This document shows positions 1 through 55,754 of a stretch of 64,000 nucleotides of DNA, piece by piece. Under the pieces are notes generated by a model. It had not been told where the DNA came from. It saw only the letters and a program-made list of their open reading frames with translations, and made no database searches. Position 1 is the stretch's first letter; each line of letters starts with the position of its first letter. Source of the DNA: Escherichia coli (GTDB lineage: Bacteria > Pseudomonadota > Gammaproteobacteria > Enterobacterales > Enterobacteriaceae); NCBI RefSeq assembly GCF_001677475.2, contig NZ_CP015229.1; one strand, 5' to 3'. A program made the position numbers and the translations under genes.

Positions 1-1333
1 TCCTGTCGATATCGACGGAGCTTTGCCCTCTTTCATTCACCGCATGAACATTTGCAAGAGACAGTAGTGTTTCTTTTTTCGCCATATAAACGCCGCGAAC
101 GTCTTTGCGCATGTCAAAGTTCATGCTCAATGCTGGTCCAACAGAGGATTCCTGCATCACTTTGATATTACGCATAAAAAGGTGTTGCGGCTTGTTGTGT
201 AGCTCCAGCGAGGCACGCTTCATCTCAATGTTAGTCAGTGCCACAAAGGAGACGGCATTCCCGGCTGAGATTTGGATACCGCGCAATTTATAAACAAGGT
301 GGGTGTTATCCAGTTGAATATTATTCACTCGGAAATTTTGTGGTATCGAGAGATATTTGCCTTTAATTACCCCATAGCCGATTAACATCCCGGCACTATT
401 AATCATTTCAATATTATCAATCACGAAATTATCACAACCGTAAATAGCGACTGTCGCGTTATCAATACCTGCTTTCTTACTGAAATCCGGCGTGATATTG
501 CGGGCTTTGATATTACGGATAACAAAATGTTTACCATTTTCAACATGGATCAACTGCCGACAATCCGATCCCGTGATATTCGCCACGACAAAGTTTTTCA
601 CTGCCTGGTCTTCCGGGTAATTATTATCATAAGTGCTTCCCGCAAGACCTATGCCAATGCCCCAGTTGATTTTGCCGTTAGTACAGTTGATGCGCTCGAT
701 GATGTGGTCGGAGATCAAAATATCACTGTCGTTAATCGCCACGTTCCATTCAATAGCGTCCCCCTGTAAGTCGCTGAACTTACAATTGGTGATGTTGGCA
801 CCGATAATCTGGTTATGAAATCCCTGGCGTAAGATGGCGTAATTAGCGTGGCTGACAGTGAGGTTATCGATGGTCAGGTTGCGCATGACCCGTTTGTTTT
901 TGCCGCCGATATAAATCTGCGTTACCGGGCCAAAGCCGCTCATCACCAGCCCTTTGATGGAGCAGTCAGAACCGCGCACATCCAGGGTGATGTTATGCAT
1001 ACTGCCGCCCTCCTCCCCTGTCACCTGGCTGCCGTCCTGTAAGACAAATCGCCCTCTGCCGTTGCCGCGCAGGCTTCCAAGGATGTGTAACGTTTTACCG
1101 GGAGGGATAAAGATGCCGGTGTTGATATTGTCACAAACCAATCCGGCAGGCACGACGACCGTTTGCCCTTCGCTGAAGGCTTGTTTAAATGAGGCGATCC
1201 AGTCGTGAGGGTTGTAGTCGTTAATGTTAACGCTTTGTCGGGCGGGAAGCGCGCGGGCGAAAGGGGTATGGAGGAAGGCAAGCGCCGAGCTTGCCGTCAG
1301 GAAGGTGCGTCGGGAGAGTGTTTTAAATGGCAT
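1..1333 (-). CDS. wcaM: Colanic acid biosynthesis protein WcaM, 3' end truncated by window edge
   Basis: Minus-strand ATG at 1331-1333 (reverse complement of ggagaacgtATGccatttaaa) gives MPFK... N-terminus; open frame runs to window start; last gene of the wca cluster by synteny. Not in ORF track because no stop in window. Confidence 0.8.
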
Positions 1334-8497: not shown

Positions 8498-8587
8498 GTC
8501 GTTACCCTTTTTCAGGCAATAGTTGGCCCTGACCGAAGCGGCCAATTTTGTTTTTGTCGTTATTTACATCGCGGTTCGGCATTCATT

Positions 8588-11830: not shown

Positions 11831-12796
11831 TTACCCCCGAAAGCGGTCTTGATTCTCAAGGAACCACTGGTAAGTGCTGGCAAGCCCCGCTTCCAGTGAG
11901 ATTTCGTGATACCAGCCAAGCTGATGCAGGCGCGTCACATCCAGCAGTTTGCGCGGCGTACCATCCGGTTTACTGGCATCAAAAACCACCCGACCTTTGT
12001 AACCCACCACTTTGGCGATGGTTTGCGCCAGCTCGCGGATAGTGCAGTCAACGCCCGTGCCGACGTTAATGTGTGACAGCATCGGCTGGGTGTTTTCCAG
12101 CCAGACTTCGTGCGCCAGCTCCATCACATGAATGCTCGCCGCTGCCATATCATCGACGTGCAGAAATTCACGCATCGGTGTACCGCTGCCCCATACCACC
12201 ACGTCCGGTGCATTCTGTGCCGTCGTCTCGTGGAAGCGACGCAGCAATGCAGGTATCACATGCGAATTACTCGGATGGAAGTTGTCGTGTGGCCCGTACA
12301 GGTTGGTCGGCATGACCGAGCGGTAATCGCGTCCATACTGGCGGTTGTAAGATTCGCACAGTTTGATCCCGGCGATTTTGGCAATGGCGTAAGGCTCGTT
12401 GGTCGGCTCCAGCGTACCCTGCAATAACTCGCTTTCGGCCATCGGCTGTTTTGCCAGTTTCGGGTAGATGCAGGACGATCCGAGAAACAGCAGTTTGTTC
12501 ACGTCGTTCTGATGCGCAGCGTGAATGATGTTGCTCTCAATCATCATGTTCTGGTAGATGAAATCCGCCGGATAGGTGTTATTGGCAACAATGCCGCCCA
12601 CTTTCGCTGCCGCCAGATAAACCTGGTCAATGCGCTCGCTGGCAAAGAAATCATGCACCGCACGGCTATCCAGAAGGCTCAGCTCGTCGCGGGTGCGTAA
12701 TACCAGTTCCACATCACCGCGCTGTTCGAGCTGCCGCCTGATGGCGGAACCGACCATCCCGCGATGGCCAGCGATAAAAATGCGTTGTTTACTCAT
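11831..12796 (-). CDS. fcl: GDP-L-fucose synthase Fcl
   Basis: 321-aa [26 protein letters not shown]...; NAD(P)-binding GxxGxxG motif; synteny with gmd. Confidence 0.9.
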
Positions 12797-12798
12797 GC

Positions 12799-13920
12799 TT
12801 ATGACTCCAGCGCGATCGCCACGTCGTAGCCGTGAGATTTCAGCAGAGAGTGTTTTTTCGCCGCTTCGAGGTCATTAGCCACCATTTCAGACACCATCTC
12901 TCTGAGGGTGATTTCCGGTTTCCAGCCCAGTTTTTCGTGCGCTTTGGTCGGGTCGCCAAGCAGCGTTTCAACTTCAGCCGGACGGAAGTAACGCGGGTCA
13001 ACGGCGATAATCACATCACCCGGTTTAACGCCCGGCGCGTCATGCCCGGTGACGGAAACCACAATGCCCTTCTCTTCAACACCCGTGCCTTCAAAGCGCA
13101 GTTTGATGCCCAACTGTGCTGCCGCCATTTCCACGAACTGACGTACGGAGTACTGAACGCCGGTCGCGATAACGAAATCTTCTGGCTGTTCCTGTTGCAG
13201 CATCATCCACTGCATTTTTACGTAGTCTTTGGCATGGCCCCAGTCACGCAGGGAATCCATATTGCCGAGGTACAGGCACGACTCCAGCCCCTGGGCGATG
13301 TTGGCGATTGCGCGGGTAATTTTGCGGGTAACGAAGGTTTCGCCGCGGCGCGGGGATTCATGGTTGAAGAGAATACCGTTACAGGCGTACATGCCGTAGG
13401 ATTCGCGGTAGTTAACGGTGATCCAGTAGGCGTACAGTTTGGCGACCGCATACGGAGAGCGTGGGTAGAACGGCGTGGTTTCTTTCTGCGGAATTTCCTG
13501 CACCAGACCGTACAGTTCAGAAGTGGAAGCCTGATAGAAACGAGTTTTCTTTTCCAGACCGAGGAAGCGGATCGCCTCCAGCAGGCGCAGCGTACCCATC
13601 GCATCAACGTCTGCGGTATATTCCGGTGACTCAAAAGAGACCGCAACGTGGCTCATTGCGCCCAGGTTGTAAACTTCATCCGGCTGCACTTCACGCAAAA
13701 TGCGCGTCAGGTTGGAGGTATCACTCAGGTCGCCATAATGCAGATGGAATTTCGGGTTGCAGGTGTGCGGATCCTGATAAATGTGATCCACGCGCTCGGT
13801 GTTGAATGACGATGCACGACGCTTAATACCATGCACCTCATAACCTTTTTCCAGCAGAAACTCTGCCAGGTAAGAACCGTCTTGTCCGGTTACACCGGTG
13901 ATGAGAGCGACTTTTGACAT
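12799..13920 (-). CDS. gmd: GDP-mannose 4,6-dehydratase Gmd
   Basis: 373-aa [34 protein letters not shown]...; SDR-family dehydratase. Confidence 0.9.
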
Positions 13921-13946
13921 GTCTTATTCCTCTGTATTTTTTGAAT

Positions 13947-14495
13947 TTATTCAGTTTCAACGCGTTCGCGTATCACCACTGCGGGATTCCCCCGGCAAAC
14001 CACATTTGCCGGAAGCGATTTAAAAACACTGCTTCGCGCACCCACGACGGTGCCGTCGCCGATCGTTACGCCAGGGGCAACAAAGACATCGGTTGCCAGC
14101 CAGCATTTCTCGCCAATCACAATAGGTGTGGCGTTAATGGTGAAATGTTGACTTGCATGGTCGTGGCTACCGGTGCATAAATAACTTTTTTGCGATATCA
14201 CCGAATTTGCGCCAATGGTTATTTCACCGAGGGTATATAAATTGACCTCATCGCCGACCCACACGTAATCACCTAAGGTTAATTTCCACGGATAGGTAAT
14301 TTTTACTGACGGACGAATAACTACGTTTTTTCCTATTTTTGCGCCGAATAAACGTAATAAAAATTCCCGCCAGCGATACAATACTTGTGGCGACCAGGCA
14401 AATAATGTTGCCTGTACTGCCCACCACAATTGCACTTTAATAGCGTTGCCGCCCCGGAACCCTTTCGGCACCGAGAAACCACTTAAATCCTGCAT
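13947..14495 (-). CDS. wcaF: Colanic acid acetyltransferase WcaF (hexapeptide-repeat)
   Basis: 182-aa ORF with left-handed beta-helix hexapeptide repeats (...IGANSVISQKSYLCTGSHD...). Confidence 0.85.
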   Translation of the reverse strand: MQDLSGFSVPKGFRGGNAIKVQLWWAVQATLFAWSPQVLYRWREFLLRLFGAKIGKNVVIRPSVKITYPWKLTLGDYVWVGDEVNLYTLGEITIGANSVISQKSYLCTGSHDHASQHFTINATPIVIGEKCWLATDVFVAPGVTIGDGTVVGARSSVFKSLPANVVCRGNPAVVIRERVETE

Positions 14496-14510
14496 CGTTT
14501 TCCCTTATAT

Positions 14511-15257
14511 TCAGCTTTTGTTATATAAGGCTTTCGTCTTTGAGGTAGTACGTTGGCGTAAATGCCAGGATAATTCTGCCCAGAAGCCAGGCACATGTAA
14601 TATCTGCCGTTGGACTTTTTTGGCGTCAGCACACAATTCCATATTATTGGTGGTAGATACTCCACCCATAGAAAATTCAGACACCAGGCCATTGAGTTTT
14701 CTAAATGCATAACCAGCTTTATACATTTTGGCTGCCAGCGCGTAATCGGAAGAAACTTTATATTCCAGGTCATAACGCCATTTTTTCAAACCGGATACCG
14801 GGAAAAATATCGCCTGATGACTGGCGGGCAGGCTGTGATAAATATACCAGCCCGGTTTGGCGCTACGTTTAATTTTATGCCCGTCGCCAAAATCCAGCAG
14901 CGCATCGCCGGTGATCATCACGTTATCTTTTTGCATTTTTAACTTACGGACAAAAATTGCGGCATCCTGATGAAAAATATCGCCCGAGTTGAGAAACAAC
15001 GCGAACTTGCCTTGTGCCATCGCAATGCCCTTGTTCATGGCGTCGTAGATACCGTTATCTGGCTCGCTGACAAAGCGTAGGTTATAGATACCATTGAGGT
15101 TTTCCAGATACTCACGGGTGCCGTCGTTGGAACCGCCATCGACAACAATCCATTCGAAGCTGATATCGTCAGCCTGCGCCAGATGCGCCAGCGAGGCATG
15201 TGTTTTGACTATCCCTTCGAGGTTACGAAACGCGACAGTGATTATGCTAAGCAACAT
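14511..15257 (-). CDS. wcaE: Colanic acid glycosyltransferase WcaE (GT2 family)
   Basis: 248-aa [26 protein letters not shown]...; GT2 DxD-type fold; AT-richer than neighbours. Confidence 0.85.
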
Positions 15258-15267
15258 GTTCTTATTC

Positions 15268-16485
15268 TTACCTCGTAATATTTAACGCTTTTCGCAAAAT
15301 AAACGGACAGACGATTAAAAAAGCATATTCCGGGCTAAATATCGAACCGGTAAAAAACAGCGATACCGGAGTGAAAAGATATAATTGCACGCGAAAATTG
15401 CGATTATCACCAAAAGCGTTGATCATCATTTTTATCACTTTTCCCATGTACCACAGCGATAAAAACACTGCGAACCAGGAAAAATAAATAATCAGCAGAT
15501 ACAAACCATTGTCTATGGTTTTTCCGACATCCGCACCGTTAAATATTCCGAATGATGCGACATATTCATAAAGTGAGCCAAATCTGACTACACCGTCAAT
15601 ATGGGTCAAAGAATAACCGACCATCACCAGCGGACCGACAATACGATAATACGATGACGATCCTTCCGTACCTAAATCACCCAGACGGGTGGAAATATAA
15701 GGAAACGCGATTACCACACCAACCAGGAATACAGCCAGAGAAATCAATGCTAACGGTAACTTTTTCTTAATCGCCTCTTTATTCAGATATTGAAATACCC
15801 ACTCCAGCAAATAAAAAAGGATAAAGGTCATAACCCCTGAAAACGATCCGGATAATATTATCCCTGCGAGAATCATAGCATCTGTTTTAGGCGTTTTGAT
15901 ACCAAACTGTTTGATGCTGAGCCAAATTGAGATTAATGCCAGAGCGAAAAATGCCGGTTCGAAATAAAGTGCTGTCGTGCGCTTGCCACCGAATTTAATG
16001 AAATTCAGTACATAGCTGTTGCTGTAAATCAGATATTTCGAAATCGACTCCATAATACTGCTGCCGCCGGTGAGGATAATTTGCGCCATCTCCACCGCCG
16101 CCAGCGCCACCACCAACCCGACCACCAGATAAAAAAAGCGTAATATCTTGCGGTGGTTGTGGGGCGAAATCGTTTTAAAGCGAATACTCCACACCATGCC
16201 AATAATGATCACAATATAGACAAACAGCATGGTTGAAGTGACGTATTTACTGGCATCCAACGACTGACCAAACAGGTAGTTAAACGCCGTGAGTCCCGCA
16301 CCAATCCCTAAGGCAATCATCAATTTTTTAACGCTGATGCGCTCTAAAAACAGCAGTAACAAGACAGGTAAAAAAGTGACGATGGTGATGGGAAAACTTT
16401 CGCCAAGCTGGGCGATTTTGACGTTAACCAGCAGGTAGATCAGCGGCAGCAGCAGGTAGCTACAGATTCTGATAGAAGTTGACAT
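15268..16485 (-). CDS. wcaD: Colanic acid polymerase WcaD (Wzy-like)
   Basis: Polytopic membrane ORF; start trimmed to [21 protein letters not shown]... (405 aa); overlaps 3' end of wcaC by 26 bp; AT-rich. Confidence 0.8.
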
Positions 16486-17677
16486 ACTCCTCCAGCATCT
16501 GTTGTCCACTGTAGGCGGCACGGCTGCGTTGGCTGAACTCAGCCAGCGTGGTACCAAATACCGCCTGCGCGATTTCCGGTTTGCTTAACTGGACCAGTTG
16601 CAGCACCTCTTCTTCGCTGACGGTTTTACCGCCGGATTTTTGCAACACTTCACGCGCCGCGTCGCTATGGGTGGCAATCACCGGCACGCCAATTGATAAC
16701 GCCTCACACAAAATCAGTGGGTAGTTATCGACACGAGAACTGAACACCAGCGCATCCATCTGATTGAGCGCGCTCATCAGCTTACGTTTGTCGGTTTCAA
16801 AGCCGTGATTGACCACGTTGCCAGCGGTGAACGGCGAGAACTTACCAAAGGTATGCAGTTCGATTTTGTCGTCCAGCGCCATCATCTCGCGCACCAGTTG
16901 CTGGTTAGTTTTGCCGTCGTAACGCAGGTCATGCGCTACCACCGCGATTTTCGGCTTGCCCTGAGTTTCGCGCACCGGAGGCAGATCCGCCAGAATCGCT
17001 TCGGTTGCCATATCAATACCGTTATTGATAATCCGGCAACGCCCTGGGCCATACAGGCTATTGAAAGCGTCAGCCACATGCTGGCTGGGGGAAATAAACT
17101 GACAGCCCAGTGCCAGCATCTCACGGAATAACTGGCGTTTGCCCGCCACCAGCTGGCGCGCGCGATCAATCTTCACCGGCGGATAATTATTTAAGGTCGG
17201 GCATTTCTGGCAGCTCGTTTTCCAGCCTTCGCAACCGTCGGTAAAGGCGCAGCGTCCGGTAACGCTCCAGTGGTCGTGCAGCGTCCAGACCAGTGTGATA
17301 TCCGGTTTATGGTTTTTCACTTTTTCGCAAAAGCGCACCACGCTCTTAAGATTCAACCAATAGCTGTGCAGCACATGAAAATGCAGAACCAGCGGACCCG
17401 GTGTGCGAGTAATGGTGCGATATAACTCATTGAAATTACCGAACAGATCGCGATTAAACAGACGAAACAACGCAATGTTCGCCATCGCGGTCATCCGCGG
17501 CGTATGTTTGATGACCTGCGGGTAGTTCTGATGGCTGACGCTCTCTTTGCCGCCTTTGCCGTAGCCGTAGACAAAATGTGACGCCAGCCCCTGTTGCAGC
17601 GCGCGCTGGTGGAGATCTAACGCCACACCTGCCGCCCCGCCTTCCGCCAGTCGCACATTAAATTGCAGAATATTCAT
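16460..17677 (-). CDS. wcaC: Colanic acid glycosyltransferase WcaC (GT4 family)
   Basis: 405-aa ORF MNILQFNVRLAEGGAAGVALDLHQ... Confidence 0.9.
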   Translation of the reverse strand: MNILQFNVRLAEGGAAGVALDLHQRALQQGLASHFVYGYGKGGKESVSHQNYPQVIKHTPRMTAMANIALFRLFNRDLFGNFNELYRTITRTPGPLVLHFHVLHSYWLNLKSVVRFCEKVKNHKPDITLVWTLHDHWSVTGRCAFTDGCEGWKTSCQKCPTLNNYPPVKIDRARQLVAGKRQLFREMLALGCQFISPSQHVADAFNSLYGPGRCRIINNGIDMATEAILADLPPVRETQGKPKIAVVAHDLRYDGKTNQQLVREMMALDDKIELHTFGKFSPFTAGNVVNHGFETDKRKLMSALNQMDALVFSSRVDNYPLILCEALSIGVPVIATHSDAAREVLQKSGGKTVSEEEVLQLVQLSKPEIAQAVFGTTLAEFSQRSRAAYSGQQMLEEYVNFYQNL

Positions 17678-18162
17678 TTAATTACCTTCACTCGCGCTTT
17701 TTCTCCCACCACCAGCGCGTTGTCCGGGACAGAGTCGAGCACCACGCTGCCCGCGCCCACGGTGACGTTGTTACCAAGCGTGATATCACCAAGAATAATG
17801 ACGTTGGCACCGAGTTCGACACCGTTACCAATGTGTGGACATGCCATGTTATCGGCACCCCGATTGCCGATAGTGACGCCGTGGCGAATGGTGAAATCAT
17901 CCCCCGCGACCACGTTTTTATTGATCACTACGGCGTAACCGTGATGGATAGTAAAGCGTCGGCCAATGGTCGCGGCGGCCTGGATTTCATAACCGAAAAA
18001 GCATTCGGTGATAATGCGATACAGCACCAGCAGCGGGGCCGCCCACAGATTGTTGAGGACGTTCTTTTTGCGCCACACCGAACAAAAATGAGCAACGCGA
18101 TAGGCAAGAACCATGCAGCACGGGCGTAAACTCCAGCTGTTGGCGCGCAGATCTTCCAGCAT
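17674..18162 (-). CDS. wcaB: Colanic acid acetyltransferase WcaB (serine acetyltransferase-like)
   Basis: 162-aa ORF with hexapeptide repeats (...IGNRGADNMACPHIGNGVELGANVIILGDITLG...). Confidence 0.9.
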   Translation of the reverse strand: MLEDLRANSWSLRPCCMVLAYRVAHFCSVWRKKNVLNNLWAAPLLVLYRIITECFFGYEIQAAATIGRRFTIHHGYAVVINKNVVAGDDFTIRHGVTIGNRGADNMACPHIGNGVELGANVIILGDITLGNNVTVGAGSVVLDSVPDNALVVGEKARVKVIK

Positions 18163-18164
18163 CC

Positions 18165-19004
18165 TTAACGCCCCCGTATTCCATCAGCCAGACGTTTGCC
18201 GTTACGCACCGACAGTAGCGTCAACAAAGTCCGCCAGGTCATGCGTTTATTGCGGATCTGGTAGAGGGTAAACAATTGATATTTTTTGCTGGCGCGGTCA
18301 AATTTGTCTTTGTGCTTGCGGTAAAAGTGGAAGTATCCGGAGAATTTTTTCGGTGACGAGGTGATCTGCATTTCACCGTGATTGATATGCAGGATCTGCG
18401 TCGCTTCTTCCACTTTCCACGGTTCGCCATACTCCACCACCATCCGCAGGAAGATGTCGTAATCCTGTGCCGCTTTCAGTTCGGTATCGAACAAACACTC
18501 TTTGAAACGCCACGCCCAGGTAAAGACCTGATTGCCAATGATATTGCGTTTATAGAACAGGCGGCGTGAATAGGGTGATTTGGGATACAGCGGCAAACTT
18601 GCTGGTTGGGAATAGACTTCGCCCTGGCAAACGTAGTCGTTGGCGTACAAAAAGGCGTGAGTGACCAGTTGCTGCTTATGGGCGAGGAAGACGCTCAGGC
18701 GGTTGGGCGTCCATTCATCATCGTCATCGATCCCGGTGATGTATTCCCCTTGCGCCCGCATAATTGCCTGGTTACGTACCGCGCACGCTCCGCTGTTAAT
18801 ATCGTTGTGAATGTAAGTAATACGCGGATCGTTGAGGGCGGTGACGTACTGTTGCAGTTGTTCCCAGGAGGTGGAGCAATCATCCACGATGATCATCTCC
18901 CAGTTACTGTAGTCCTGGCGCAGGACCGATTTTATCGCCCGAATCGCCAGTTGTTGGCGGTTCCAGGTCGGCATATAGATTGAGATCAGCGGATTTTCTT
19001 TCAT
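18165..19004 (-). CDS. wcaA: Colanic acid glycosyltransferase WcaA (GT2 family)
   Basis: 279-aa ORF MKENPLISIYMPTWNRQQLAIRAIKSVLRQ... with DDD motif (GIDDDDEW). Confidence 0.9.
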   Translation of the reverse strand: MKENPLISIYMPTWNRQQLAIRAIKSVLRQDYSNWEMIIVDDCSTSWEQLQQYVTALNDPRITYIHNDINSGACAVRNQAIMRAQGEYITGIDDDDEWTPNRLSVFLAHKQQLVTHAFLYANDYVCQGEVYSQPASLPLYPKSPYSRRLFYKRNIIGNQVFTWAWRFKECLFDTELKAAQDYDIFLRMVVEYGEPWKVEEATQILHINHGEMQITSSPKKFSGYFHFYRKHKDKFDRASKKYQLFTLYQIRNKRMTWRTLLTLLSVRNGKRLADGIRGR

Positions 19005-23028: not shown

Positions 23029-23040
23029 CACGCTACCGCC
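23029..23040 (-). promoter_or_regulatory. ops element (GGCGGTAGCGTG) inside the JUMPstart of the cps leader; RfaH recruitment site
   Basis: Plus strand reads cacgctaccgcc, so the minus (cps-sense) strand reads ggcggtagcgtg, about 180 nt upstream of the wza ATG in the untranslated leader. Confidence 0.7.
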
Positions 23041-23252
23041 CCTGGCTTTTAGCTACCAATACACTGATTTAGCTTAATTTTTAAAACCCTCTCAACATAC
23101 AGTCGTTGATGAGAAAGGGTTATTGCGGAAATTAACTTCCGAATATAAGGTGACATTATGGTAATTGAATATTGGCTCTCCAATAATGCAGGAGGAAGTG
23201 TTACAGCTAACGGAATAGCAGGCAAGGTAACAATTCGGCAATTGGCTATTTT

Positions 23253-38432: not shown

Positions 38433-38613
38433 AAGAAATCCTTTCTTAGAGAATTATTGAGGTCCGGTATCATACCGATTGCAATAATGAAATAAGAGCA
38501 AACGAAGAAACTTTCAGAATTAGTCCCGGCGGCGCAGAAAATTTTGCTATTCGCCTCGCAAGAACGGAGAGCCGTCGATTGACACTAAGGGCGGAGTGAC
38601 ATAATTTCAGGAG

Positions 38614-38763
38614 TGAGGGTTAGGGAGAGGTTTCCCCCTCCCCCTGGTGTTCTTAGTAAGCCTGGAAGCTAATCACTAAGAGTATCACCAGTATGATGAC
38701 GTGCTTCATCATAACCCTTTCCTTATTAAAAGCCCTCTTCTCCGGGAGAGGCTTTCCCGTTTC
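38614..38763 (+). ncRNA. sibA: Sib antitoxin sRNA, copy 1 (SibA-like); ends approximate
   Basis: Promoter ttgaca (38579-84), 17-bp spacer, taattt; antisense to the whole ibs ORF; terminator hairpin agccctcttctccgggagaggct plus tttcccgttt. Confidence 0.6.
38653..38712 (-). CDS. ibsA: Ibs type I toxin peptide, 19 aa (MMKHVIILVILLVISFQAY)
   Basis: Minus-strand atgatgaagcacgtcatcatactggtgatactcttagtgattagcttccaggcttactaa; hydrophobic Ibs-family peptide fully overlapped by the antisense Sib. Confidence 0.8.
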   Translation of the reverse strand: MMKHVIILVILLVISFQAY

Positions 38764-38948
38764 AGCGTCCCGCTGAAATCGTCGGCTTACCTCCTTTCGC
38801 CCTGAATGCAGTCTATCGCTAACGCGTGAACAAAATAGTTTCCTCTGTGATTATTGCGTAACGACTCGCAAAGAATATTTGCTGGCAGGATCGCAGACTG
38901 CAAAGCCTGCAGATTGACAATCTTATCGTGAAGGCATACTTTCAGGAG

Positions 38949-39090
38949 TGAGGGTAGAGCGGGGGTTCCCCCGCCCTGGTAGTCTTAGTAAGCCGGGAAG
39001 CTTATGACTAAGAGCACCACGATGATGATCCACTTCATCATGACCCTTTCCTTATTTAAGGCCCCTTCCTCGGGAGGGGCTTTCCCGTTT
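38949..39090 (+). ncRNA. sibB: Sib antitoxin sRNA, copy 2; ends approximate
   Basis: Promoter ttgaca (38914-19), N17, tacttt (38937-42); terminator gccccttcctcgggaggggc plus tttcccgttt. Confidence 0.6.
38985..39041 (-). CDS. ibsB: Ibs type I toxin peptide, 18 aa (MMKWIIIVVLLVISFPAY)
   Basis: Minus-strand atgatgaagtggatcatcatcgtggtgctcttagtcataagcttcccggcttactaa. Confidence 0.8.
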   Translation of the reverse strand: MMKWIIIVVLLVISFPAY

Positions 39091-39276
39091 CAGCGTCCCG
39101 CTGAAATCATCGGCTTACCTCCTTTCGCCCTGAATGCAGTCTATCGCTGACTTGCGGATAAAATAGTTTCACATGTGATTATTGCGTAGCGTCTCGCAAA
39201 GAATATTTGCTGGCAGGATCGCAGACTGCAAAGCCTGCAGATTGACAATCTTATCGTGAAGGCATACTTTCAGGAG

Positions 39277-39418
39277 TGAGGGTAGAGCGGGGTTTCCCCC
39301 GCCCTGGTAGTCTTAGTAAGCTGGCCAGCTAATGACTAAGAGCACCACGATGATGAGTATCTTCATCATGACCCTTTCCTTATTTAAGACCCCTTCCTCG
39401 GGAGGGGCTTTCCCGTTT
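39277..39418 (+). ncRNA. Sib antitoxin sRNA, copy 3; ends approximate
   Basis: Promoter ttgaca (39242-47), N17, tacttt (39265-70); terminator hairpin 39388-39408 plus T-run. Confidence 0.6.
39313..39369 (-). CDS. Ibs type I toxin peptide, 18 aa (MMKILIIVVLLVISWPAY)
   Basis: Minus-strand atgatgaagatactcatcatcgtggtgctcttagtcattagctggccagcttactaa. Confidence 0.75.
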   Translation of the reverse strand: MMKILIIVVLLVISWPAY

Positions 39419-39647: not shown

Positions 39648-40895
39648 ATGAAAGGCAGTTATAAATCCCGTTGGGTAATCGTAATCGTGGTGGTTATCGC
39701 CGCCATCGCCGCATTCTGGTTCTGGCAAGGCCGCAATGACTCCCGGAGTGCAGCCCCAGGGGCGACGAAACAAGCGCAGCAATCGCCAGCGGGTGGTCGC
39801 CGTGGTATGCGTTCCGGCCCATTAGCCCCGGTTCAGGCGGCGACCGCCGTAGAACAGGCAGTTCCGCGTTACCTCACCGGGCTTGGCACCATTACCGCCG
39901 CTAATACTGTTACGGTGCGCAGCCGCGTGGACGGTCAACTGATGGCGTTGCATTTCCAGGAAGGCCAGCAGGTCAAAGCAGGCGATTTATTGGCAGAAAT
40001 TGACCCCAGCCAGTTCAAAGTTGCATTAGCACAAGCCCAGGGCCAACTGGCAAAAGATAAAGCCACGCTTGCCAACGCCCGCCGTGACCTGGCGCGTTAT
40101 CAACAACTGGTAAAAACCAATCTCGTCTCCCGCCAGGAGCTGGATGCCCAACAAGCGCTGGTCAGTGAAACCGAAGGCACCATTAAGGCTGATGAAGCAA
40201 GCGTCGCCAGCGCACAGCTGCAACTCGACTGGAGCCGTATTACCGCACCAGTCGATGGTCGCGTTGGTCTCAAGCAGGTTGATGTTGGTAACCAAATCTC
40301 CAGTGGTGATACCACCGGGATTGTGGTGATCACCCAGACGCATCCTATCGATTTGCTCTTTACCCTGCCGGAAAGCGATATCGCTACCGTCGTGCAGGCG
40401 CAAAAAGCCGGGAAACCGCTGGTGGTAGAAGCCTGGGATCGCACCAATTCAAAGAAATTAAGCGAAGGCACGCTGTTAAGTCTCGATAACCAAATCGATG
40501 CCACAACCGGTACGATTAAAGTGAAAGCACGCTTTAATAATCAGGATGATGCGCTGTTTCCCAATCAGTTTGTTAACGCGCGCATGTTAGTCGACACCGA
40601 ACAAAACGCCGTAGTGATCCCAACAGCCGCCCTGCAAATGGGCAATGAAGGCCATTTTGTCTGGGTGCTGAATAGCGAAAACAAGGTCAGCAAACATCTG
40701 GTGACGCCGGGCATTCAGGACAGTCAGAAAGTGGTGATCCGTGCAGGTATTTCTGCGGGCGATCGCGTGGTGACAGACGGCATTGATCGCCTGACCGAAG
40801 GGGCGAAAGTGGAAGTGGTGGAAGCCCAGAGCGCCACTACTCCGGAAGAGAAAGCCACCAGCCGCGAATACGCGAAAAAAGGAGCACGCTCCTGA
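39648..40895 (+). CDS. mdtA: RND efflux membrane-fusion (periplasmic adaptor) protein MdtA
   Basis: ORF 39501..40895 trimmed to [28 protein letters not shown]... (415 aa). Confidence 0.9.
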
Positions 40896-43800
40896 TGCAG
40901 GTGTTACCCCCGAGCAGCACAGGCGGCCCGTCGCGCCTGTTTATTATGCGTCCTGTCGCCACCACGCTGCTGATGGTGGCGATCTTACTCGCCGGGATTA
41001 TCGGTTATCGCGCCCTGCCCGTTTCGGCGCTGCCGGAAGTGGACTATCCGACCATTCAGGTGGTCACGCTCTACCCAGGTGCCAGCCCGGATGTCATGAC
41101 CTCTGCCGTTACCGCGCCGCTCGAACGCCAGTTCGGGCAGATGTCCGGCCTGAAACAGATGTCGTCGCAAAGTTCCGGCGGTGCGTCAGTTATCACTTTG
41201 CAGTTCCAGCTAACATTACCGCTCGATGTCGCCGAGCAGGAAGTGCAGGCCGCGATTAACGCTGCGACCAACTTGTTGCCGAGCGATCTGCCTAACCCGC
41301 CGGTTTACAGCAAAGTGAACCCGGCAGATCCGCCGATCATGACGCTCGCCGTCACCTCAACCGCCATGCCGATGACGCAAGTGGAAGATATGGTGGAAAC
41401 CCGCGTCGCGCAGAAAATCTCGCAGATTTCCGGTGTCGGCCTGGTGACGCTTTCCGGCGGGCAGCGTCCGGCTGTTCGCGTCAAACTTAACGCTCAGGCG
41501 ATTGCCGCCCTCGGCCTGACCAGCGAAACCGTGCGCACCGCCATTACCGGCGCTAACGTCAACTCGGCAAAAGGTAGCCTCGACGGCCCTTCCCGTGCGG
41601 TCACGCTTTCCGCGAACGACCAGATGCAATCCGCCGAAGAGTATCGCCAGCTGATCATCGCCTACCAGAACGGCGCACCGATTCGTCTGGGCGATGTCGC
41701 AACTGTAGAGCAAGGTGCAGAAAACAGCTGGCTCGGCGCGTGGGCGAACAAAGAACAGGCCATTGTGATGAATGTTCAGCGCCAGCCCAGTGCTAACATT
41801 ATCTCCACCGCCGACAGCATCCGGCAGATGCTGCCACAGCTCACCGAAAGTCTGCCGAAATCGGTGAAGGTAACGGTACTTTCTGACCGCACCACCAATA
41901 TTCGCGCATCCGTCGATGATACTCAGTTTGAATTGATGATGGCTATCGCGCTGGTAGTCATGATTATCTACCTGTTTTTACGCAATATTCCGGCGACCAT
42001 CATTCCCGGTGTTGCCGTGCCGCTGTCGTTAATCGGCACTTTTGCGGTTATGGTGTTTCTCGATTTTTCAATCAATAACCTGACGCTGATGGCGTTAACT
42101 ATCGCCACCGGATTCGTGGTCGATGACGCCATCGTGGTGATCGAAAACATTTCCCGCTATATCGAAAAAGGCGAAAAACCGCTGGCGGCGGCGCTCAAAG
42201 GCGCGGGTGAGATCGGCTTTACCATTATCTCGCTGACCTTCTCGCTGATTGCGGTGTTGATCCCACTGCTGTTTATGGGCGATATCGTCGGGCGATTGTT
42301 CCGCGAATTTGCTATTACTCTGGCGGTAGCGATTTTGATCTCAGCGGTGGTGTCGCTGACCCTGACACCGATGATGTGCGCGCGGATGCTCAGCCAGGAG
42401 TCGTTGCGTAAACAGAACCGCTTCTCCCGTGCCTCGGAAAAAATGTTCGACAGGATAATCGCCGCCTATGGTCGTGGACTGGCGAAAGTGCTGAATCATC
42501 CGTGGCTGACCTTAAGCGTGGCGCTCAGCACGCTGCTGCTTAGCGTACTGCTGTGGGTGTTCATTCCGAAAGGTTTCTTCCCGGTACAGGACAACGGCAT
42601 TATTCAGGGCACCTTGCAGGCACCGCAATCCAGCTCCTTTGCCAATATGGCCCAGCGGCAACGCCAGGTCGCGGATGTGATTTTACAAGATCCGGCAGTG
42701 CAAAGCCTGACCTCATTTGTTGGCGTTGATGGCACTAACCCGTCGCTGAACAGTGCGCGTTTACAGATCAACCTCAAACCGTTGGATGAACGTGATGATC
42801 GGGTGCAAAAAGTCATCACCCGTCTGCAAACGGCGGTGGATAAAGTGCCGGGCGTCGATCTCTTCTTGCAACCAACGCAGGACCTGACCATCGATACTCA
42901 GGTCAGCCGCACCCAGTACCAGTTTACCTTGCAGGCCACGTCACTGGATGCGCTCAGTACCTGGGTGCCGCAGCTCATGGAAAAACTCCAGCAATTGCCA
43001 CAGCTTTCTGATGTCTCCAGCGACTGGCAGGACAAAGGGCTGGTGGCGTATGTCAATGTTGATCGCGACAGCGCCAGCCGTCTGGGGATCAGCATGGCGG
43101 ATGTCGATAACGCCCTGTACAACGCGTTTGGTCAGCGACTGATTTCCACTATTTATACTCAGGCTAACCAGTATCGCGTGGTGCTGGAACACAACACCGA
43201 AAATACCCCAGGCCTCGCGGCGCTGGATACCATTCGCCTGACCAGCAGCGACGGTGGCGTGGTGCCGTTAAGCTCAATTGCCAAAATTGAGCAGCGTTTT
43301 GCGCCACTTTCCATCAACCATCTGGATCAGTTCCCGGTAACGACCATCTCCTTTAACGTGCCGGATAACTATTCGCTGGGCGATGCGGTGCAGGCGATTA
43401 TGGACACCGAAAAGACGCTGAATCTACCGGTGGATATCACCACGCAGTTCCAGGGCAGCACCCTCGCCTTCCAGTCGGCGCTTGGCAGCACTGTCTGGCT
43501 GATTGTCGCGGCGGTGGTGGCGATGTATATCGTGCTCGGCATTCTGTACGAGAGCTTTATTCACCCGATCACCATTCTCTCGACGCTACCCACCGCAGGG
43601 GTCGGCGCGCTGCTGGCATTAATGATTGCCGGTAGCGAACTGGATGTGATTGCGATTATCGGCATTATTTTGCTGATCGGTATCGTGAAGAAGAACGCCA
43701 TCATGATGATCGACTTCGCGCTGGCTGCTGAGCGTGAGCAAGGCATGTCGCCGCGCGATGCAATCTACCAGGCTTGTCTGTTGCGTTTTCGTCCGATCCT

Positions 43801-44017
43801 GATGACCACTCTGGCGGCACTGCTTGGCGCGCTGCCGCTGATGTTGAGTACCGGGGTCGGCGCGGAACTGCGTCGTCCGTTAGGTATCGGCATGGTCGGC
43901 GGTCTGATTGTCAGCCAGGTGCTGACGCTGTTTACCACGCCGGTGATTTATTTGCTGTTCGACCGCCTGGCATTGTGGACCAAAAGCCGCTTTGCCCGTC
44001 ATGAAGAGGAGGCGTAA
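40895..44017 (+). CDS. mdtB: RND multidrug efflux transporter MdtB
   Basis: 1040-aa [37 protein letters not shown]...; AcrB/RND superfamily; start overlaps the mdtA stop (TGATG). Confidence 0.9.
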
Positions 44018-53160: not shown

Positions 53161-53478
53161 TCACTCTCCACATTTGAATGTCAGACGAGCGACGCCATGT
53201 AATCCTGCACCTTCTGTCTTCAGGTCAACTATCTGCATTTTTTTGCCCTGAGTAACACAGAAATGGGCTGCATCATTTTTTACTATATTTTCTGCACCAG
53301 AAATTCTGCCCCTGGCTAAAGAAGCTTCGGCTTCGGTGTAGTATTGGTTATCGAGTTTACGCTGAATATTACTTTTATATGCAAGGCCAAATTTACCGAT
53401 ACTTGTCTCATCATTATGCACAGCACAACCAGACATAAGAAAAACACTAATTAATGATATAGCAGCTATCTTGTTCAC
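53161..53478 (-). CDS. yegR: Small putative lipoprotein, probably YegR
   Basis: ORF 53161..53538; probable GTG start giving (M)NKIAAISLISVFLMSGCAV... (105 aa) with lipobox LMSGC; position next to yegS. Confidence 0.55.
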   Translation of the reverse strand: MNKIAAISLISVFLMSGCAVHNDETSIGKFGLAYKSNIQRKLDNQYYTEAEASLARGRISGAENIVKNDAAHFCVTQGKKMQIVDLKTEGAGLHGVARLTFKCGE

Positions 53479-53894
53479 CTCACCTTCCCCCATTAAATAC
53501 CAACGACACTCTCTAGTGTTTAAATATAATAATGGCATGATTATTATAATTGAATAGGATTATAATAAATATTCTGTACAACATTTCCTACATAAGTAGG
53601 AATTACGGACATGGAGGCCCTTCCGGGTAACTCCATGGGGGGCTTTAATATATTTTGAATAGTATATTGAAGATGCCACTGTTTAGTTGAATTATTAGGT
53701 ATATGCTCTTTTTTGAAATTTATCGGTAGCTGCCGTTAGTATTCGCTGTCCCCATTGCAAGCTCCTGGTGGTAACCACTGAATCCTCCATACTTGAACTG
53801 ACTTTTTATCCTCCGACTTTCATCCTGTTCTGACTCCACCTTTTCTTTTCTGCTCTACACTATCTACAGACCAATCATAAAGGCACATACGATC

Positions 53895-54794
53895 ATGGCA
53901 GAATTTCCCGCCAGCTTACTGATTCTTAATGGCAAAAGTACTGACAATTTACCATTGCGCGAAGCAATTATGCTTTTGCGTGAGGAAGGAATGACGATCC
54001 ATGTGCGGGTCACCTGGGAGAAAGGTGATGCCGCACGATTTGTAGAGGAGGCCCGGAAGTTGGGCGTCGCAACGGTGATTGCCGGTGGTGGCGATGGCAC
54101 CATTAATGAAGTTTCTACGGCGTTGATTCAGTGTGAGGGGGATGACATACCCGCGCTGGGAATTTTGCCATTAGGAACCGCCAATGATTTTGCCACCAGT
54201 GTAGGGATTCCTGAGGCACTGGATAAGGCACTGAAACTGGCAATTGCCGGTAACGCCATTGCAATAGATATGGCGCAGGTCAACAAACAAACCTGTTTTA
54301 TTAATATGGCGACAGGCGGGTTTGGGACGCGTATTACCACAGAAACGCCGGAAAAATTAAAAGCCGCGCTGGGTGGCGTCTCTTACATCATTCATGGCTT
54401 AATGCGTATGGATACTCTGCAACCGGACCGTTGTGAAATCCGCGGTGAAAACTTTCACTGGCAAGGTGACGCCCTGGTCATTGGTATTGGTAACGGGCGT
54501 CAGGCCGGTGGCGGTCAACAATTGTGCCCGAACGCGTTAATTAACGATGGCTTGCTGCAACTGCGCATTTTTACCGGCGATGAAATTCTTCCGGCTCTCG
54601 TATCAACCTTAAAATCTGACGAAGATAACCCGAATATTATCGAAGGCGCTTCGTCGTGGTTTGATATACAAGCCCCACACGAAATCACTTTTAATCTTGA
54701 TGGCGAACCGTTGAGTGGGCAAAACTTCCATATTGAAATACTTCCGGCGGCGTTACGTTGTCGATTACCACCAGATTGTCCATTATTGCGTTAA
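53895..54794 (+). CDS. yegS: Lipid kinase YegS (DAGK_cat family)
   Basis: 299-aa [35 protein letters not shown]...GGDGTINEV... Confidence 0.9.
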
Positions 54795-54832
54795 TCAAAC
54801 TATTCTTTCTTGAACCAGGGAGAATCCGTAAT

Positions 54833-54866
54833 GCCGGATGCGGTGTAAACACCTTATCCGGCATAC
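54833..54866. repeat. REP element
   Basis: gccggatgcggtgtaaacaccttatccggcat between yegS and gatR. Confidence 0.7.
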
Positions 54867-54875
54867 AGAACAATA

Positions 54876-55655: not shown

Positions 55656-55714
55656 TTACCCATATTCAATTGTGGCTAGTGTAAACGAAGGGGGACCATT
55701 GGTGAATGATCTGT

Positions 55715-55750
55715 TTTGCACAATACCGGGCCAGCATCACGCTGGCCCGC
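55715..55750 (-). terminator. Candidate gat operon terminator
   Basis: cgggccagc-atcac-gctggcccg hairpin just downstream of the gatD stop; flanking U-run is weak. Confidence 0.3.
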
Positions 55751-55754
55751 GGTT

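Follow-up and report, generated by a model that had tools for sequence, protein, structure and literature searches.

An AT-rich stretch within the colanic acid operon of Escherichia coli is inherited with its neighbours and may be a maintained, H-NS-controlled internal region

The window, the whole 64,000-nt stretch of Escherichia coli DNA analysed here, carries on its minus strand the wcaD-wcaE-wcaF part of a colanic acid (wca/cps) operon. The gene wcaD (15268..16485, minus strand), taken from the list of open reading frames, encodes a putative colanic acid polymerase of 405 aa. It is followed by wcaE (14511..15257, minus strand), for a family-2 glycosyltransferase of 248 aa (PF00535), and, between wcaE and gmd, by wcaF (13947..14495, minus strand), for a hexapeptide-repeat acetyltransferase of 182 aa (Pfam Hexapep). 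WcaD matches the NCBIfam equivalog TIGR04010 with 870.8 bits (cut-off 589.65), model positions 1-404 aligning with residues 1-404; WcaE matches TIGR04009 (514.4 bits, cut-off 369.2) and WcaF matches TIGR04008 (393.9 bits, cut-off 326.3). The names wcaD and wcaE given in the initial annotation are confirmed by these equivalogs and by the RefSeq annotation of E. coli N3, whose corresponding region is 97.7% identical to the window in nucleotides and in which wcaD is annotated with 405 aa. Comparison of the ORFs with E. coli N3 gives the canonical order wza-wzb-wzc-wcaA-B-C-D-E-F-gmd-fcl-gmm-wcaI-cpsB-cpsG-wcaJ-wzxC-wcaK-L to wcaM, the last of which extends past the window start. The lineage of the window is ~2% diverged from each of 5,426 complete E. 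coli genomes. In the wza leader, a JUMPstart element with ops (GGCGGTAGCGTG) is present at 23029..23066 on the minus strand (Rfam RF01707, 57.9 bits, gathering score 35). This leader marks the predicted main RfaH-dependent transcription unit, which contains the AT-rich block described below.

The wcaC stop and the wcaD start are interlocked (16460..16493, minus strand). The genes overlap by 26 nt (16460-16485), as the initial annotation had stated. The wcaD ATG is located at 16485-16483, behind a Shine-Dalgarno-like GGAGGAG (16493-16487), and GCTGGAGGA stands directly before this ATG in every upstream sequence displayed. The ATG, the preceding GGAGGA and the 26-nt overlap occur without variation in every one of 82 clusters. 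The synonymous sites of wcaC codons 393-403 are at least 95% conserved, and this junction is the top window of synonymous conservation in the cluster. The start of wcaD had been considered ambiguous, with a first ATG giving 429 aa. This was an error: the 429-aa ORF begins with a TTG at 16557, and the first ATG (16485) gives 405 aa. The other in-frame start codons upstream are two GTGs, no more, and seven clusters have an in-frame stop within the proposed 24-codon extension. The cross-species comparison settles the question; judged from these aligned sequences, wcaD starts with the ATG at 16485. Its translation is probably coupled to that of wcaC by way of the 26-nt overlap and the GGAGGA.

WcaD is a polytopic inner-membrane protein with at least 8 hydrophobic 19-mers, and wzxC and wzc share the operon with its gene, which makes this a Wzx/Wzy-dependent locus. 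AlphaFold2 models it as mostly helical, with a few short strands (pLDDT 89, pTM 0.90). The only notable match of this model in the PDB is to chain 7tpg_B, the WaaL O-antigen ligase (E 7.4e-3, probability 1.00), with a TM of 0.43 over 396 aligned columns; the second match has an E of 0.69 and a TM of 0.17. At the sequence level, no match to PDB sequences was obtained at E ≤ 10. The Wzy_C/O-antigen ligase family PF04932 gave no Pfam match at E ≤ 0.001 and noise at E ≤ 10, and the precomputed family label is PF27321 (WcaD), distinct from PF04932. WcaD is termed a putative colanic acid polymerase, its activity on undecaprenyl-PP-linked repeat units being assigned by annotation alone. The protein is among the better conserved ones of the cluster, with a median identity of 89.6% between genera. 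A word-index search returned orthologues of at least 83% identity alone, and the family is small, an exhaustive search giving 225 representatives at E ≤ 1e-3 among 1.84 billion. Distant relatives were also considered as a clue to a donor and set aside; of two genomic contexts inspected, one was informative.

Per-gene composition sets wcaD (GC 0.423, GC3 0.502), wcaE (0.462, 0.514) and wcaF (0.477, 0.470) apart from the cluster. The GC of the 16 other cluster genes is 0.507-0.559, and GC3 elsewhere in the cluster is 0.58-0.70 against ~0.50-0.51 in wcaD and wcaE. The initial annotation had described wcaD-wcaE as a low-GC segment; the AT-richness is real, and wcaF has to be added to it. It had also proposed a check of GC and codon usage, and this reveals a significant deviation from the neighbouring genes. 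In a change-point test along the operon, GC3 is 0.504 within the segment and 0.646 outside it (Fisher p = 1.6e-16), with the maximum at 16408 and the minimum at 13480, and the drop is matched by 0/2000 codon shuffles. Among the other chromosomal ORFs of the window, GC3 spans 0.31-0.69 (mean 0.58), a range that includes the ~0.50 of the block; the remaining cluster genes (0.58-0.70) lie at or above this mean. The block is AT-rich in a relative sense only.

The extent of the shift was mapped with 40-codon GC3 bins and with the observed-minus-expected GC3 given the amino acid, both in the window and in a 59-taxon mean. An AT-shifted synonymous trough of ~2.2 kb runs from about wcaD codon 160 to about gmd codon 40 (~13800..16005, minus strand). 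Its onset is near wcaD codons 120-160 (about 16000-16125), there is a partial recovery toward the 5' end of wcaE (codons ~40-160), and its end lies ~40 codons inside gmd (about 13800). Over its first ~120 codons, wcaD has a synonymous GC3 like that of the flanks (-0.03 to -0.06), whereas the remainder is at -0.15 to -0.28; the same within-gene pattern is repeated in the 59-taxon mean. The borders of the synonymous shift thus lie inside wcaD and gmd, not at gene borders. Mean AT in the trough is 0.547, and AT reaches at least 0.58 in 38% of its 100-nt windows, compared with 2-3% in the remaining cluster. Most 100-nt windows of cluster coding sequence with AT of at least 0.62 are found at 14257-16226, the others being in the 3' part of wcaM and at three isolated spots. 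The wcaD region is the main extended AT-rich zone within the coding sequence of the cluster.

This dip is old. The GC3 of wcaD/wcaE/wcaF (D/E/F) is below that of the other cluster genes in 74/74 species' loci from more than 20 genera, with a mean difference of -0.152, and D/E/F rank lowest of all cluster genes in GC3 in 69-71 of the 74 loci. Their 4-fold divergence matches that of the flanks, with identities to other genera of 0.42-0.52 and 0.46-0.58, respectively. Pairwise distances of D/E/F correlate with those of each flank as well as the flanks do with one another (r = 0.93 and 0.93 vs 0.95), mean distances are equal (0.224, 0.224 and 0.200), and nearest neighbours agree in 44 and 40 cases, against 42 of 59 between the flanks. 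Polarised 4-fold changes in D/E/F are nearly balanced (67 W>S, 72 S>W), GC4 being 0.62 with an implied equilibrium of 0.61, and no net AT-to-GC flux, as expected of upward amelioration, was seen at these sites. The flanks are losing GC, with 331 W>S and 598 S>W changes, a GC4 of 0.77 and an equilibrium of 0.64. These counts come from the strictest set of sister pairs, four in number, and from parsimony polarisation, a method with a bias where GC is high. Since mutation favours AT in D/E/F and flanks alike, D/E/F can remain AT-rich without selection; what may really call for explanation is that the flanks stay GC-rich.

Of the marks of a horizontally acquired segment, the block has a composition unlike that of its neighbours. 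Phylogeny or divergence discordant with the flanking genes was not found for D/E/F in the distance matrices or at 4-fold sites. The block is not patchily distributed, being present in all 74 loci, and its borders do not coincide with junctions of genes or mobile elements. The AT-richness is an ancestral property of the cluster across the Enterobacteriaceae. The block and its GC-rich neighbours have been inherited together, its base composition is close to an equilibrium of its own, and a recent mosaic origin is therefore not supported. The suggestion of a mosaic cluster made in the initial annotation found no support in the tests made: the dip is universal, divergence and relationships are those of the flanks, the borders lie within genes, and a distant K locus already has the same gene order.

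An older replacement is a separate matter. The stretch from mid-wcaD to early gmd might have been replaced in an ancestor older than the last one shared by all sampled clusters, e.g., when it recombined homologously with a colanic-like capsule locus of lower GC, so that the difference would be a functionless leftover of history. The compositional step is indeed sharp and significant, and suitable donors exist in the form of a low-GC Klebsiella-type group 1 K locus (L082, GCA_022258985.1) with the same order C-D-E-F-gmd-fcl-gmm-I-J. The GC-rich flanks, out of equilibrium and losing GC, are as expected if two different backgrounds had been joined. However, D/E/F and flanks differ neither in phylogeny nor in divergence, and D/E/F lack net AT-to-GC flux. 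Identity to the K-locus homologues has no step at the trough borders; a chimeric wcaD was rejected in the same comparison. The offset has persisted in 74/74 lineages though about half of the 4-fold sites have changed, and history would not explain the near-invariant synonymous patches within the trough. Such an ancient relic is considered rather unlikely.

Alternatively, codon selection or biased gene conversion may keep GC3 high in the flanks and be a weaker force over D/E/F, for instance because little of these proteins is needed. D/E/F would then rest at an AT-biased mutational equilibrium with no role at the DNA level. Their 4-fold sites are at equilibrium, and the strong GC-to-AT excess of the flanks on recent branches is the signature of an opposing force. 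Codon usage, gauged by rare-codon and codon-class counts, is also in line with this: D/E/F contain 45.5 classical rare codons per 1000 against 21.9 (~2x), with all codon classes shifted, and the slope of D/E/F GC3 on flank GC3 over the 74 loci is 0.65, below 1. All these genes are nevertheless part of one operon. The first ~120 codons of wcaD are flank-like and the rest are not, wcaE has the reverse pattern, and because of these switches within genes an expression effect acting at the gene level cannot be the cause. Furthermore, wcaA, wcaC, wcaI and wcaL, glycosyltransferase genes of similar role, are GC3-rich, and the conserved patches are left unexplained. A weaker GC-favouring force is considered an unlikely account of the dip.

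The amino-acid composition of the proteins contributes to the dip. The GC deficit of wcaD (-0.120) is divided between amino-acid composition (-0.060) and synonymous choice (-0.059), that of wcaE (about -0.081) between -0.038 and -0.043, and in wcaF composition contributes +0.013 and the synonymous shift, the strongest of the three, -0.076. Part of the AT-richness is thus the hydrophobic composition of WcaD, and an equal or larger part consists of AT-shifted synonymous codons. This synonymous shift is confined to wcaD, wcaE and wcaF, two of which encode soluble enzymes. The view that such AT-richness is typical of Wzy-type polymerases accounts for half of the wcaD deficit and for none of that of wcaF, and the gene of the flippase WzxC, the other polytopic membrane protein of the cluster, is GC-rich (GC 0.539, GC3 0.70). 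A pure composition effect, with the block AT-rich only since Wzy-type polymerases are hydrophobic and rich in Phe/Ile/Leu/Tyr, agrees with the F, I and Y contents of WcaD (8.6%, 11.4% and 5.7%, vs 3.8%, 6.1% and 3.2% in the pooled cluster) but is refuted as the sole cause by this split between amino-acid and synonymous contributions, by the wcaF values and by wzxC, and is highly improbable.

Leaving aside the gene overlap, the two stretches of highest synonymous conservation in the cluster lie within the trough, and the three strongest synonymous-conservation windows of the cluster are all within wcaD (p about 0.001 each). Patch A (15895..15944, minus strand), a 50-nt stretch over wcaD codons 181-197 with near-invariant synonymous sites, has a mean of 1.8 mismatches per 50 nt across genera, the wcaD median being 9.7. 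In a rolling window of 8 codons its synonymous conservation is 0.944, a value that 0.1% of shuffles attain at any position. Patch B (15537..15569, minus strand; codons 306-317) has six synonymous sites invariant in 82/82 clusters, in the codons TCA, TTC, GGA, TTT, AAC and GGT, a mix of preferred and rare ones. It overlaps the conserved protein motif G303...D325 N326 G327, and conservation past it reaches codon ~330 (15496). A second sigma-70-like site on the sense strand, TAGACA-16 nt-GATTAT (15488..15515, minus strand; consensus scan, 9/12), adjoins patch B. It is a candidate by consensus match alone; TAGACA is kept in 73/82 clusters, and the -10 is GATTAT or AATTAT in 66/82.

Two other candidate explanations of the patches were rejected. 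Conserved local RNA structure was assessed by RNAalifold on 47 diverse sequences in 100-nt windows, with column shuffles within codon position, and was rejected, as z at the two patches ranged from about -0.6 to +0.9. As for an overlapping gene, the only alternative frame free of stops over a longer distance in every taxon is a 50-codon antisense span at patch A, and an antisense protein is unlikely there because the constrained stretch has only 17 codons.

The window contains an intragenic promoter known from E. coli K-12. The published primers for the K-12 wcaD fragment match exactly at 15834..15914 on the minus strand; they cover all but ~11 nt of the fragment, and the flanking primer sequence matches too. 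In K-12, this promoter was mapped as sigma-70-dependent and H-NS-repressed (Warman et al. 2020, PMC7229825). In vitro it depends on sigma-70 R451 and an AT-tract, and the replacement scheme published for it is the one used for extended -10 elements (PMC7229825). Its authors regard it as spurious, intragenic sigma-70 promoters in H-NS-silenced AT-rich genes being described as chance products of foreign DNA (PMC7229825). By identity to the K-12 fragment, the promoter of the window would be active with sigma-70 RNA polymerase.

The extended -10 element TGCTATGAT of this sense-strand promoter lies at 15872..15880 on the minus strand. TGnTATGAT is kept in 79/82 clusters across more than 20 genera, with C, G or T as n. 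The T at position 3 of wcaD codon 203 is conserved at 96% despite variation of the amino acid between A, G and V. Patch A is placed at about -30 to -79 from the inferred internal transcript start. The three clusters without the -10 T have the most patch A mismatches (8-11, vs ≤ 4 in the other 79), so that -10 loss and patch A degradation coincide in exactly the same three clusters; Mangrovibacter, equally divergent as these, retains both TGnTATGAT and patch A. The synonymous conservation of the -10 and patch A and their joint loss suggest constraint. The AT-tract required in vitro by the K-12 promoter is not conserved, with an AT fraction of 0.36-0.71 across 42 variants.

Generic promoter and terminator scans over 12500-18500 gave counts at shuffle expectation (7 vs 7.5 and 9 vs 7.5). 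The RcsAB box (TAAGAATATTCCTA, ≤ 3 mismatches) has no match in the cluster, not even upstream of wza, which makes this negative uninformative, and the IHF consensus WATCAANNNNTTR has none in the trough. A literature search for an internal cps-operon promoter or wcaD transcription-start data gave nothing useful.

Expression data from other strains concern the same genes. In EAEC 042 delta-hns at 25 °C, the list of genes up at least 205-fold includes wcaD, wcaE, wcaF, gmd, fcl, gmm and wcaI (PMC7582179). The genes wza to wcaC are absent from this list, a table of top-ranked genes only, and wcaD to wcaI are up 288-582-fold (PMC7582179). In CFT073, the wza-wcaM locus is RfaH-binding and H-NS-bound (PMC9765446).

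The best explanation overall, to which we give about an even chance, is that the block is a maintained H-NS-controlled internal region of the operon. The AT-rich region would persist since the DNA itself is used, as an H-NS-targeted control zone holding a sense-strand sigma-70 promoter with the extended -10 TGnTATGAT (15880-15872) and, upstream of it, the conserved patch of 50 nt. Once relieved of H-NS silencing, e.g., at low temperature or upon Rcs induction, the internal promoter would add transcription of the distal genes, namely the 3' part of wcaD, wcaE, wcaF, gmd, fcl, gmm and wcaI. The main transcript would cross the AT-rich region with the help of RfaH recruited at the JUMPstart/ops leader. 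The H-NS binding evidence for such a control zone comes from other strains, the ~2.2-kb trough far exceeds the needs of one promoter, and patch B is left without explanation.

More tentatively, the 'spurious' wcaD promoter may be a conserved H-NS-gated internal promoter made of the extended -10 and the 50-nt element, with the trough as silencing platform and patch B (15537-15569) as a further element; this is possible, although on balance doubtful. If true, wcaE to wcaI, including the GDP-fucose genes, would gain an input separate from the Rcs-controlled wza promoter. Confirmation would change the view of colanic acid and GDP-fucose gene expression and of H-NS 'silencing' of core operons. The literature's model of spurious transcription from foreign DNA shows synonymous conservation across genera, and is lost together with its upstream patch. 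A compositional dip in a gene cluster is also often taken as a sign of horizontal or mosaic origin, and the wca dip, conserved family-wide, co-inherited with its flanks and at equilibrium, is a clean counter-example to that inference.

The basic feature, an AT-rich dip in a well-studied operon, is already known; besides the 2020 study of Warman et al., the D/E/F dip has reportedly been described before. The closest known system is wcaD-wcaE-wcaF of the colanic acid (wca/cps) gene cluster of E. coli K-12 (Stevenson et al. 1996, J Bacteriol 178:4885). The window has the same genes, order, lengths and 26-nt wcaC/wcaD overlap as the K-12 cluster, with 97.7% nucleotide identity to complete E. coli genomes and no difference of substance.

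The wzx and wzy genes of O-antigen and capsule loci are AT-rich, and in O-antigen loci the entire serotype-specific part is AT-rich, variable and swapped between strains. Likewise, wcaD has the lowest GC of its cluster (0.423). In contrast to O-antigen loci, the wca cluster has a GC-rich flippase gene (wzxC), two genes for soluble enzymes belong to its AT-rich block, and WcaD is well conserved (median 89.6% identity between genera). The Klebsiella-type K locus has the nine genes wcaC-D-E-F-gmd-fcl-gmm-wcaI-wcaJ in the same order, behind wzi-wza-wzb-wzc, with homologues of 44-89% amino-acid identity to the wca genes. Unlike the wca cluster, it is AT-rich throughout (GC3 0.20-0.34) without a D/E/F-specific dip, its polymerase gene (GC 0.289) is the second lowest there, and it has neither patch A nor TGnTATGAT. 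With respect to the H-NS-silenced intragenic promoters of Warman et al., the published fragment is present base for base on the sense strand, as far as the primer sequences cover it. It differs from the spurious promoters described in that synonymous sites of the wca extended -10 and of the 50-nt patch upstream of it are conserved in 79/82 clusters, and in that wcaD is not foreign in any recent sense.

The colanic acid (wca/cps) operon occupies 1-22850 of the window on the minus strand. Its ORFs correspond gene for gene to the RefSeq annotation of E. coli N3, the best-matching complete genome (97.7% identity over 13900-17700), and the cluster is the known colanic acid cluster. A JUMPstart/ops element is located in the wza leader (23029-23066, minus strand). 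The initial annotation of 14511-16485 as wcaE plus wcaD is upheld by NCBIfam equivalog models: wcaD (15268-16485, minus strand, 405 aa) scores 870.8 bits and wcaE (14511-15257, minus strand, 248 aa), with a Pfam family-2 glycosyltransferase domain, 514.4 bits. The next gene, wcaF (13947-14495, minus strand), carries Pfam hexapeptide repeats and scores 393.9 bits. In context and membrane topology, WcaD agrees with a Wzy-type polymerase; it has no sequence match to Wzy_C, nothing was returned for it by Pfam, and the sole notable PDB match of its predicted fold is WaaL (E 7.4e-3, TM 0.43). Further along the operon, an algC RNA motif (RF02929, 77 bits; 8502-8551, minus strand) lies directly upstream of cpsG, and a naRNA4/REP-type element (RF02564; 3961-4031, plus strand) lies within the wcaK-wzxC gap, which measures 275 nt here versus 161 nt in E. 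coli N3.

The wcaD start had been described as ambiguous, with the first ATG giving 429 aa. That 429-aa ORF begins with a TTG at 16557, and the first ATG is at 16485; apart from the TTG, the frame upstream of this ATG holds just two further start codons, both GTG. The reported 26-nt overlap with wcaC is correct, and both overlap and ATG are invariant in 82/82 colanic clusters, with GCTGGAGGA 5' of the ATG in every sequence displayed. The TTG is missing from many clusters, in seven of the 82 a stop interrupts the frame upstream of the ATG within 13-19 codons, and the NCBIfam WcaD model alignment begins at residue 1. The start is thus unambiguous. Across wcaC codons 393-403, synonymous sites show a conservation of 95% or more, which is what dual coding and a ribosome-binding site would be expected to impose.

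The AT-richness of wcaD and wcaE relative to their neighbours is real and far beyond chance, but the block comprises three genes: wcaF had been passed over and gmd taken as a flank. Whole-gene GC is 0.423 for wcaD, 0.462 for wcaE and 0.477 for wcaF, against 0.507-0.559 in the other 16 cluster genes; the corresponding GC3 values are 0.50, 0.51 and 0.47 against 0.58-0.70. A change-point test on third positions divides the operon into a block with GC3 0.504 and a remainder at 0.646 (Fisher p = 1.6e-16); a drop of this size occurred in 0/2000 codon shuffles. The term AT-rich holds only relative to the cluster, as chromosomal ORFs elsewhere in the window span a GC3 range (mean 0.58) that includes values of about 0.50, and the remaining cluster genes equal or exceed this mean. 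After correction of GC3 for the encoded amino acid, the synonymous shift does not follow gene borders. The deficit is just -0.03 to -0.06 in wcaD codons 1-120, deepens to between -0.15 and -0.28 over the remainder of the gene from codon ~160 onwards, eases to between -0.06 and -0.13 over wcaE codons 1-160, returns to about -0.2 in the wcaE 3' end, wcaF and gmd codons 1-40, and is zero beyond. This trough (~13800-16005, minus strand) is the principal internal stretch of extended AT >= 0.62 in the cluster. A second low-GC zone is present at the distal cluster end, in the 3' part of wcaM (1-1000, minus strand, especially 264-558), with GC 0.43-0.48 and 100-nt windows of up to AT 0.68.

Elsewhere in the window, two short minus-strand ORFs, at 53161-53538 (GC 0.394, GC3 0.31) and 58517-58969 (GC 0.426, GC3 0.41), have a GC much below anything in the colanic cluster; the genes adjoining them (53895-60241) have GC3 0.46-0.58. 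The yegH-asmA interval (25166-25807, plus strand; GC 0.43-0.45) contains a RelE/ParE-type toxin frame in two pieces of 44 aa and 61 aa; the helix-turn-helix antitoxin-like ORF after it (102 aa) is intact. At this place E. coli N3 carries a toxin-antitoxin pair with both genes intact. Three tandem SIB antitoxin RNA genes are found at 38579-38727, 38914-39056 and 39242-39384 (plus strand; Rfam RF00113, 138-150 bits), where E. coli K-12 has two (SibA and SibB). Among 5,426 complete E. coli genomes, the best match is 97.7% in the wca region (13900-17700) and 98.1% at mdtA-mdtB (40000-44000), and the window may come from an Escherichia lineage outside them. With a wcaC-wcaF query, 622 genomes have no match and 67 records match at just 60-80%.

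A mosaic origin of the cluster had been suggested from this composition. In 80 loci with WcaD relatives, taken from species-representative genomes of more than 20 genera (including Salmonella, Citrobacter, Enterobacter, Lelliottia, Kosakonia, Buttiauxella, Cedecea, Mangrovibacter and Atlantibacter), GC3 of the three genes lies below the rest in every locus with enough genes for the comparison, 74 in all (mean difference -0.152, from -0.077 to -0.232). In 69-71 of these 74 they rank lowest in GC3, and their GC3 follows that of the flanking cluster genes across loci (r = 0.83, slope 0.65). Their divergence is the same as that of the flanks, with a 4-fold-site identity to other genera of 0.42-0.52 and 0.46-0.58, respectively. 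Pairwise distance matrices of the three genes correlate with those of the upstream and downstream blocks at r = 0.93 and 0.93 (block versus block, 0.95), with equal mean distances and equal nearest-neighbour agreement; the genes have been co-inherited with their flanks. The closest non-orthologous WcaD relative (46% identity) is encoded in a Klebsiella-type capsule locus (GCA_022258985.1, contig DAGPKX010000033.1, 1-21203; gnd 96% identical to K. pneumoniae), where homologues of wcaC-D-E-F-gmd-fcl-gmm-wcaI-wcaJ stand in colanic order. All of these are AT-rich (GC3 0.20-0.34), with no dip specific to the three genes, and no identity step is seen at the trough borders between the window and these homologues. 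The gene order therefore predates the colanic cluster, of which this locus is a low-GC sister. Ahead of the wca homologues, the locus has wzi-wza-wzb-wzc followed by wzx and genes for a glycosyltransferase and a pyruvyl transferase; it also includes a WcaM-like gene.

Parsimony-polarised 4-fold changes in sister pairs, a method that is biased in GC-rich sequence, gave no hint of drift of the three genes towards flank composition: 358 W>S versus 550 S>W changes over all 21 pairs, and 67 versus 72 in the four pairs with close outgroups (GC4 0.62, implied equilibrium 0.61). Taken together, the universal dip, the shared divergence and relationships, the lack of any sign of amelioration and the older gene order exclude a mosaic of recent date; all that is left is an event that predates every sampled cluster. 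That the AT-richness is a relic of such an ancient event seems rather doubtful to us.

In the GC-rich genes, which make up most of the cluster, 4-fold sites have undergone far more GC-to-AT than AT-to-GC changes on recent branches (598 vs 331; GC4 0.77 vs equilibrium 0.64, under the same polarisation). It follows that either these genes are losing GC, or selection or biased gene conversion keeps them above mutational equilibrium. A GC-favouring force could be weaker across the trough, whose AT-richness would then have no role at the DNA level; we regard this as unlikely. The conserved sub-genic shape of the trough argues against a gene-level expression effect.

Protein composition is refuted as the sole cause. 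Expected GC was derived from each gene's own amino-acid sequence, with codon frequencies taken from the 16 cluster genes outside the block. On this basis, the -0.120 deficit of wcaD is made up of -0.060 due to amino-acid composition (Phe, Ile and Tyr are enriched) and -0.059 due to codon choice; the two components are -0.038 and -0.043 in wcaE, and +0.013 and -0.076 in wcaF. The codon effect is within +/-0.03 in all remaining cluster genes. In the three genes, the A/T shift is present across every codon class, and classical rare codons are twofold enriched (45.5 vs 21.9 per 1000). wzxC, likewise encoding a polytopic membrane protein, has GC 0.539 and GC3 0.70. Being typical of a Wzy gene, as had been proposed, therefore accounts for part of wcaD and for none of wcaF.

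The synonymous-codon conservation of the whole cluster was scanned in the 82 sequences (background frequency of the commonest codon, 0.68). The top three windows are all located in wcaD, and such values were reached anywhere in just 0.1% of shuffles. The wcaC/wcaD overlap ranks first. Patch A (15895-15944) ranks second, with cross-genus mismatches of 1.8 per 50 nt compared with a median of 9.7 for wcaD. The third, patch B (15537-15569, minus strand, extending to ~15496), has six synonymous sites (TCA, TTC, GGA, TTT, AAC, GGT) without variation in any of the 82 clusters, which span more than 20 genera, and further conserved sites up to codon 330. Patch B overlaps a conserved protein motif, its fixed codons are a mix of preferred and rare ones, and it adjoins a TAGACA-16-GATTAT match (15515-15488); neither RNA structure nor an overlapping ORF was found there. 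Neither patch is accounted for by local RNA structure, by ORFs in alternative frames or by consensus sites for RcsAB or IHF.

Directly downstream of patch A lies GAT GnT ATG ATT, in which TGnTATGAT is kept in 79 of the 82 clusters. The 'n' varies freely, and the preceding T is 96% conserved despite an amino-acid change at that codon. The site belongs to an intragenic 'wcaD' promoter known in E. coli K-12 (Warman et al. 2020, PMC7229825), whose published primers and sequence correspond exactly to 15834-15914 of the window, in sense orientation. Its transcription in vitro is sigma-70-dependent and needs an upstream AT-tract, and it was classed by its authors as H-NS-repressed and spurious (PMC7229825). 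The first T of the -10 is lost in three clusters, from two Atlantibacter species and one locus labelled Citrobacter freundii. The same three have the most patch A mismatches (8-11, versus at most 4 elsewhere), whereas the equally divergent Mangrovibacter retains both elements. This joint loss is consistent with patch A and the -10 forming one functional unit; that the promoter AT-tract is not conserved across clusters counts against it.

The region may be kept AT-rich through a role as an H-NS-bound internal control zone holding the wcaD promoter, a reading we hold with about even confidence. Besides the AT zone of the trough itself, it is supported by the effect of hns deletion in EAEC 042 at 25 °C, where wcaD, wcaE, wcaF, gmd, fcl, gmm and wcaI appear, with increases of 288-582-fold, in the list of genes raised at least 205-fold, from which the wza to wcaC genes are absent (PMC7582179). 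In CFT073, the wza-wcaM locus is bound by H-NS and recruits RfaH (PMC9765446).

The initial annotation was thus right in outline, incomplete in extent, wrong in the start-codon detail and unsupported as to a recent mosaic origin. The literature already counts wcaD among AT-rich, H-NS-silenced genes, and the AT-rich wcaD-wcaE segment as first described was already known. A modest new lead is offered by two features of wcaD: a promoter, published as spurious, that is conserved across genera and lost jointly with patch A, and patch B, a second stretch under constraint.
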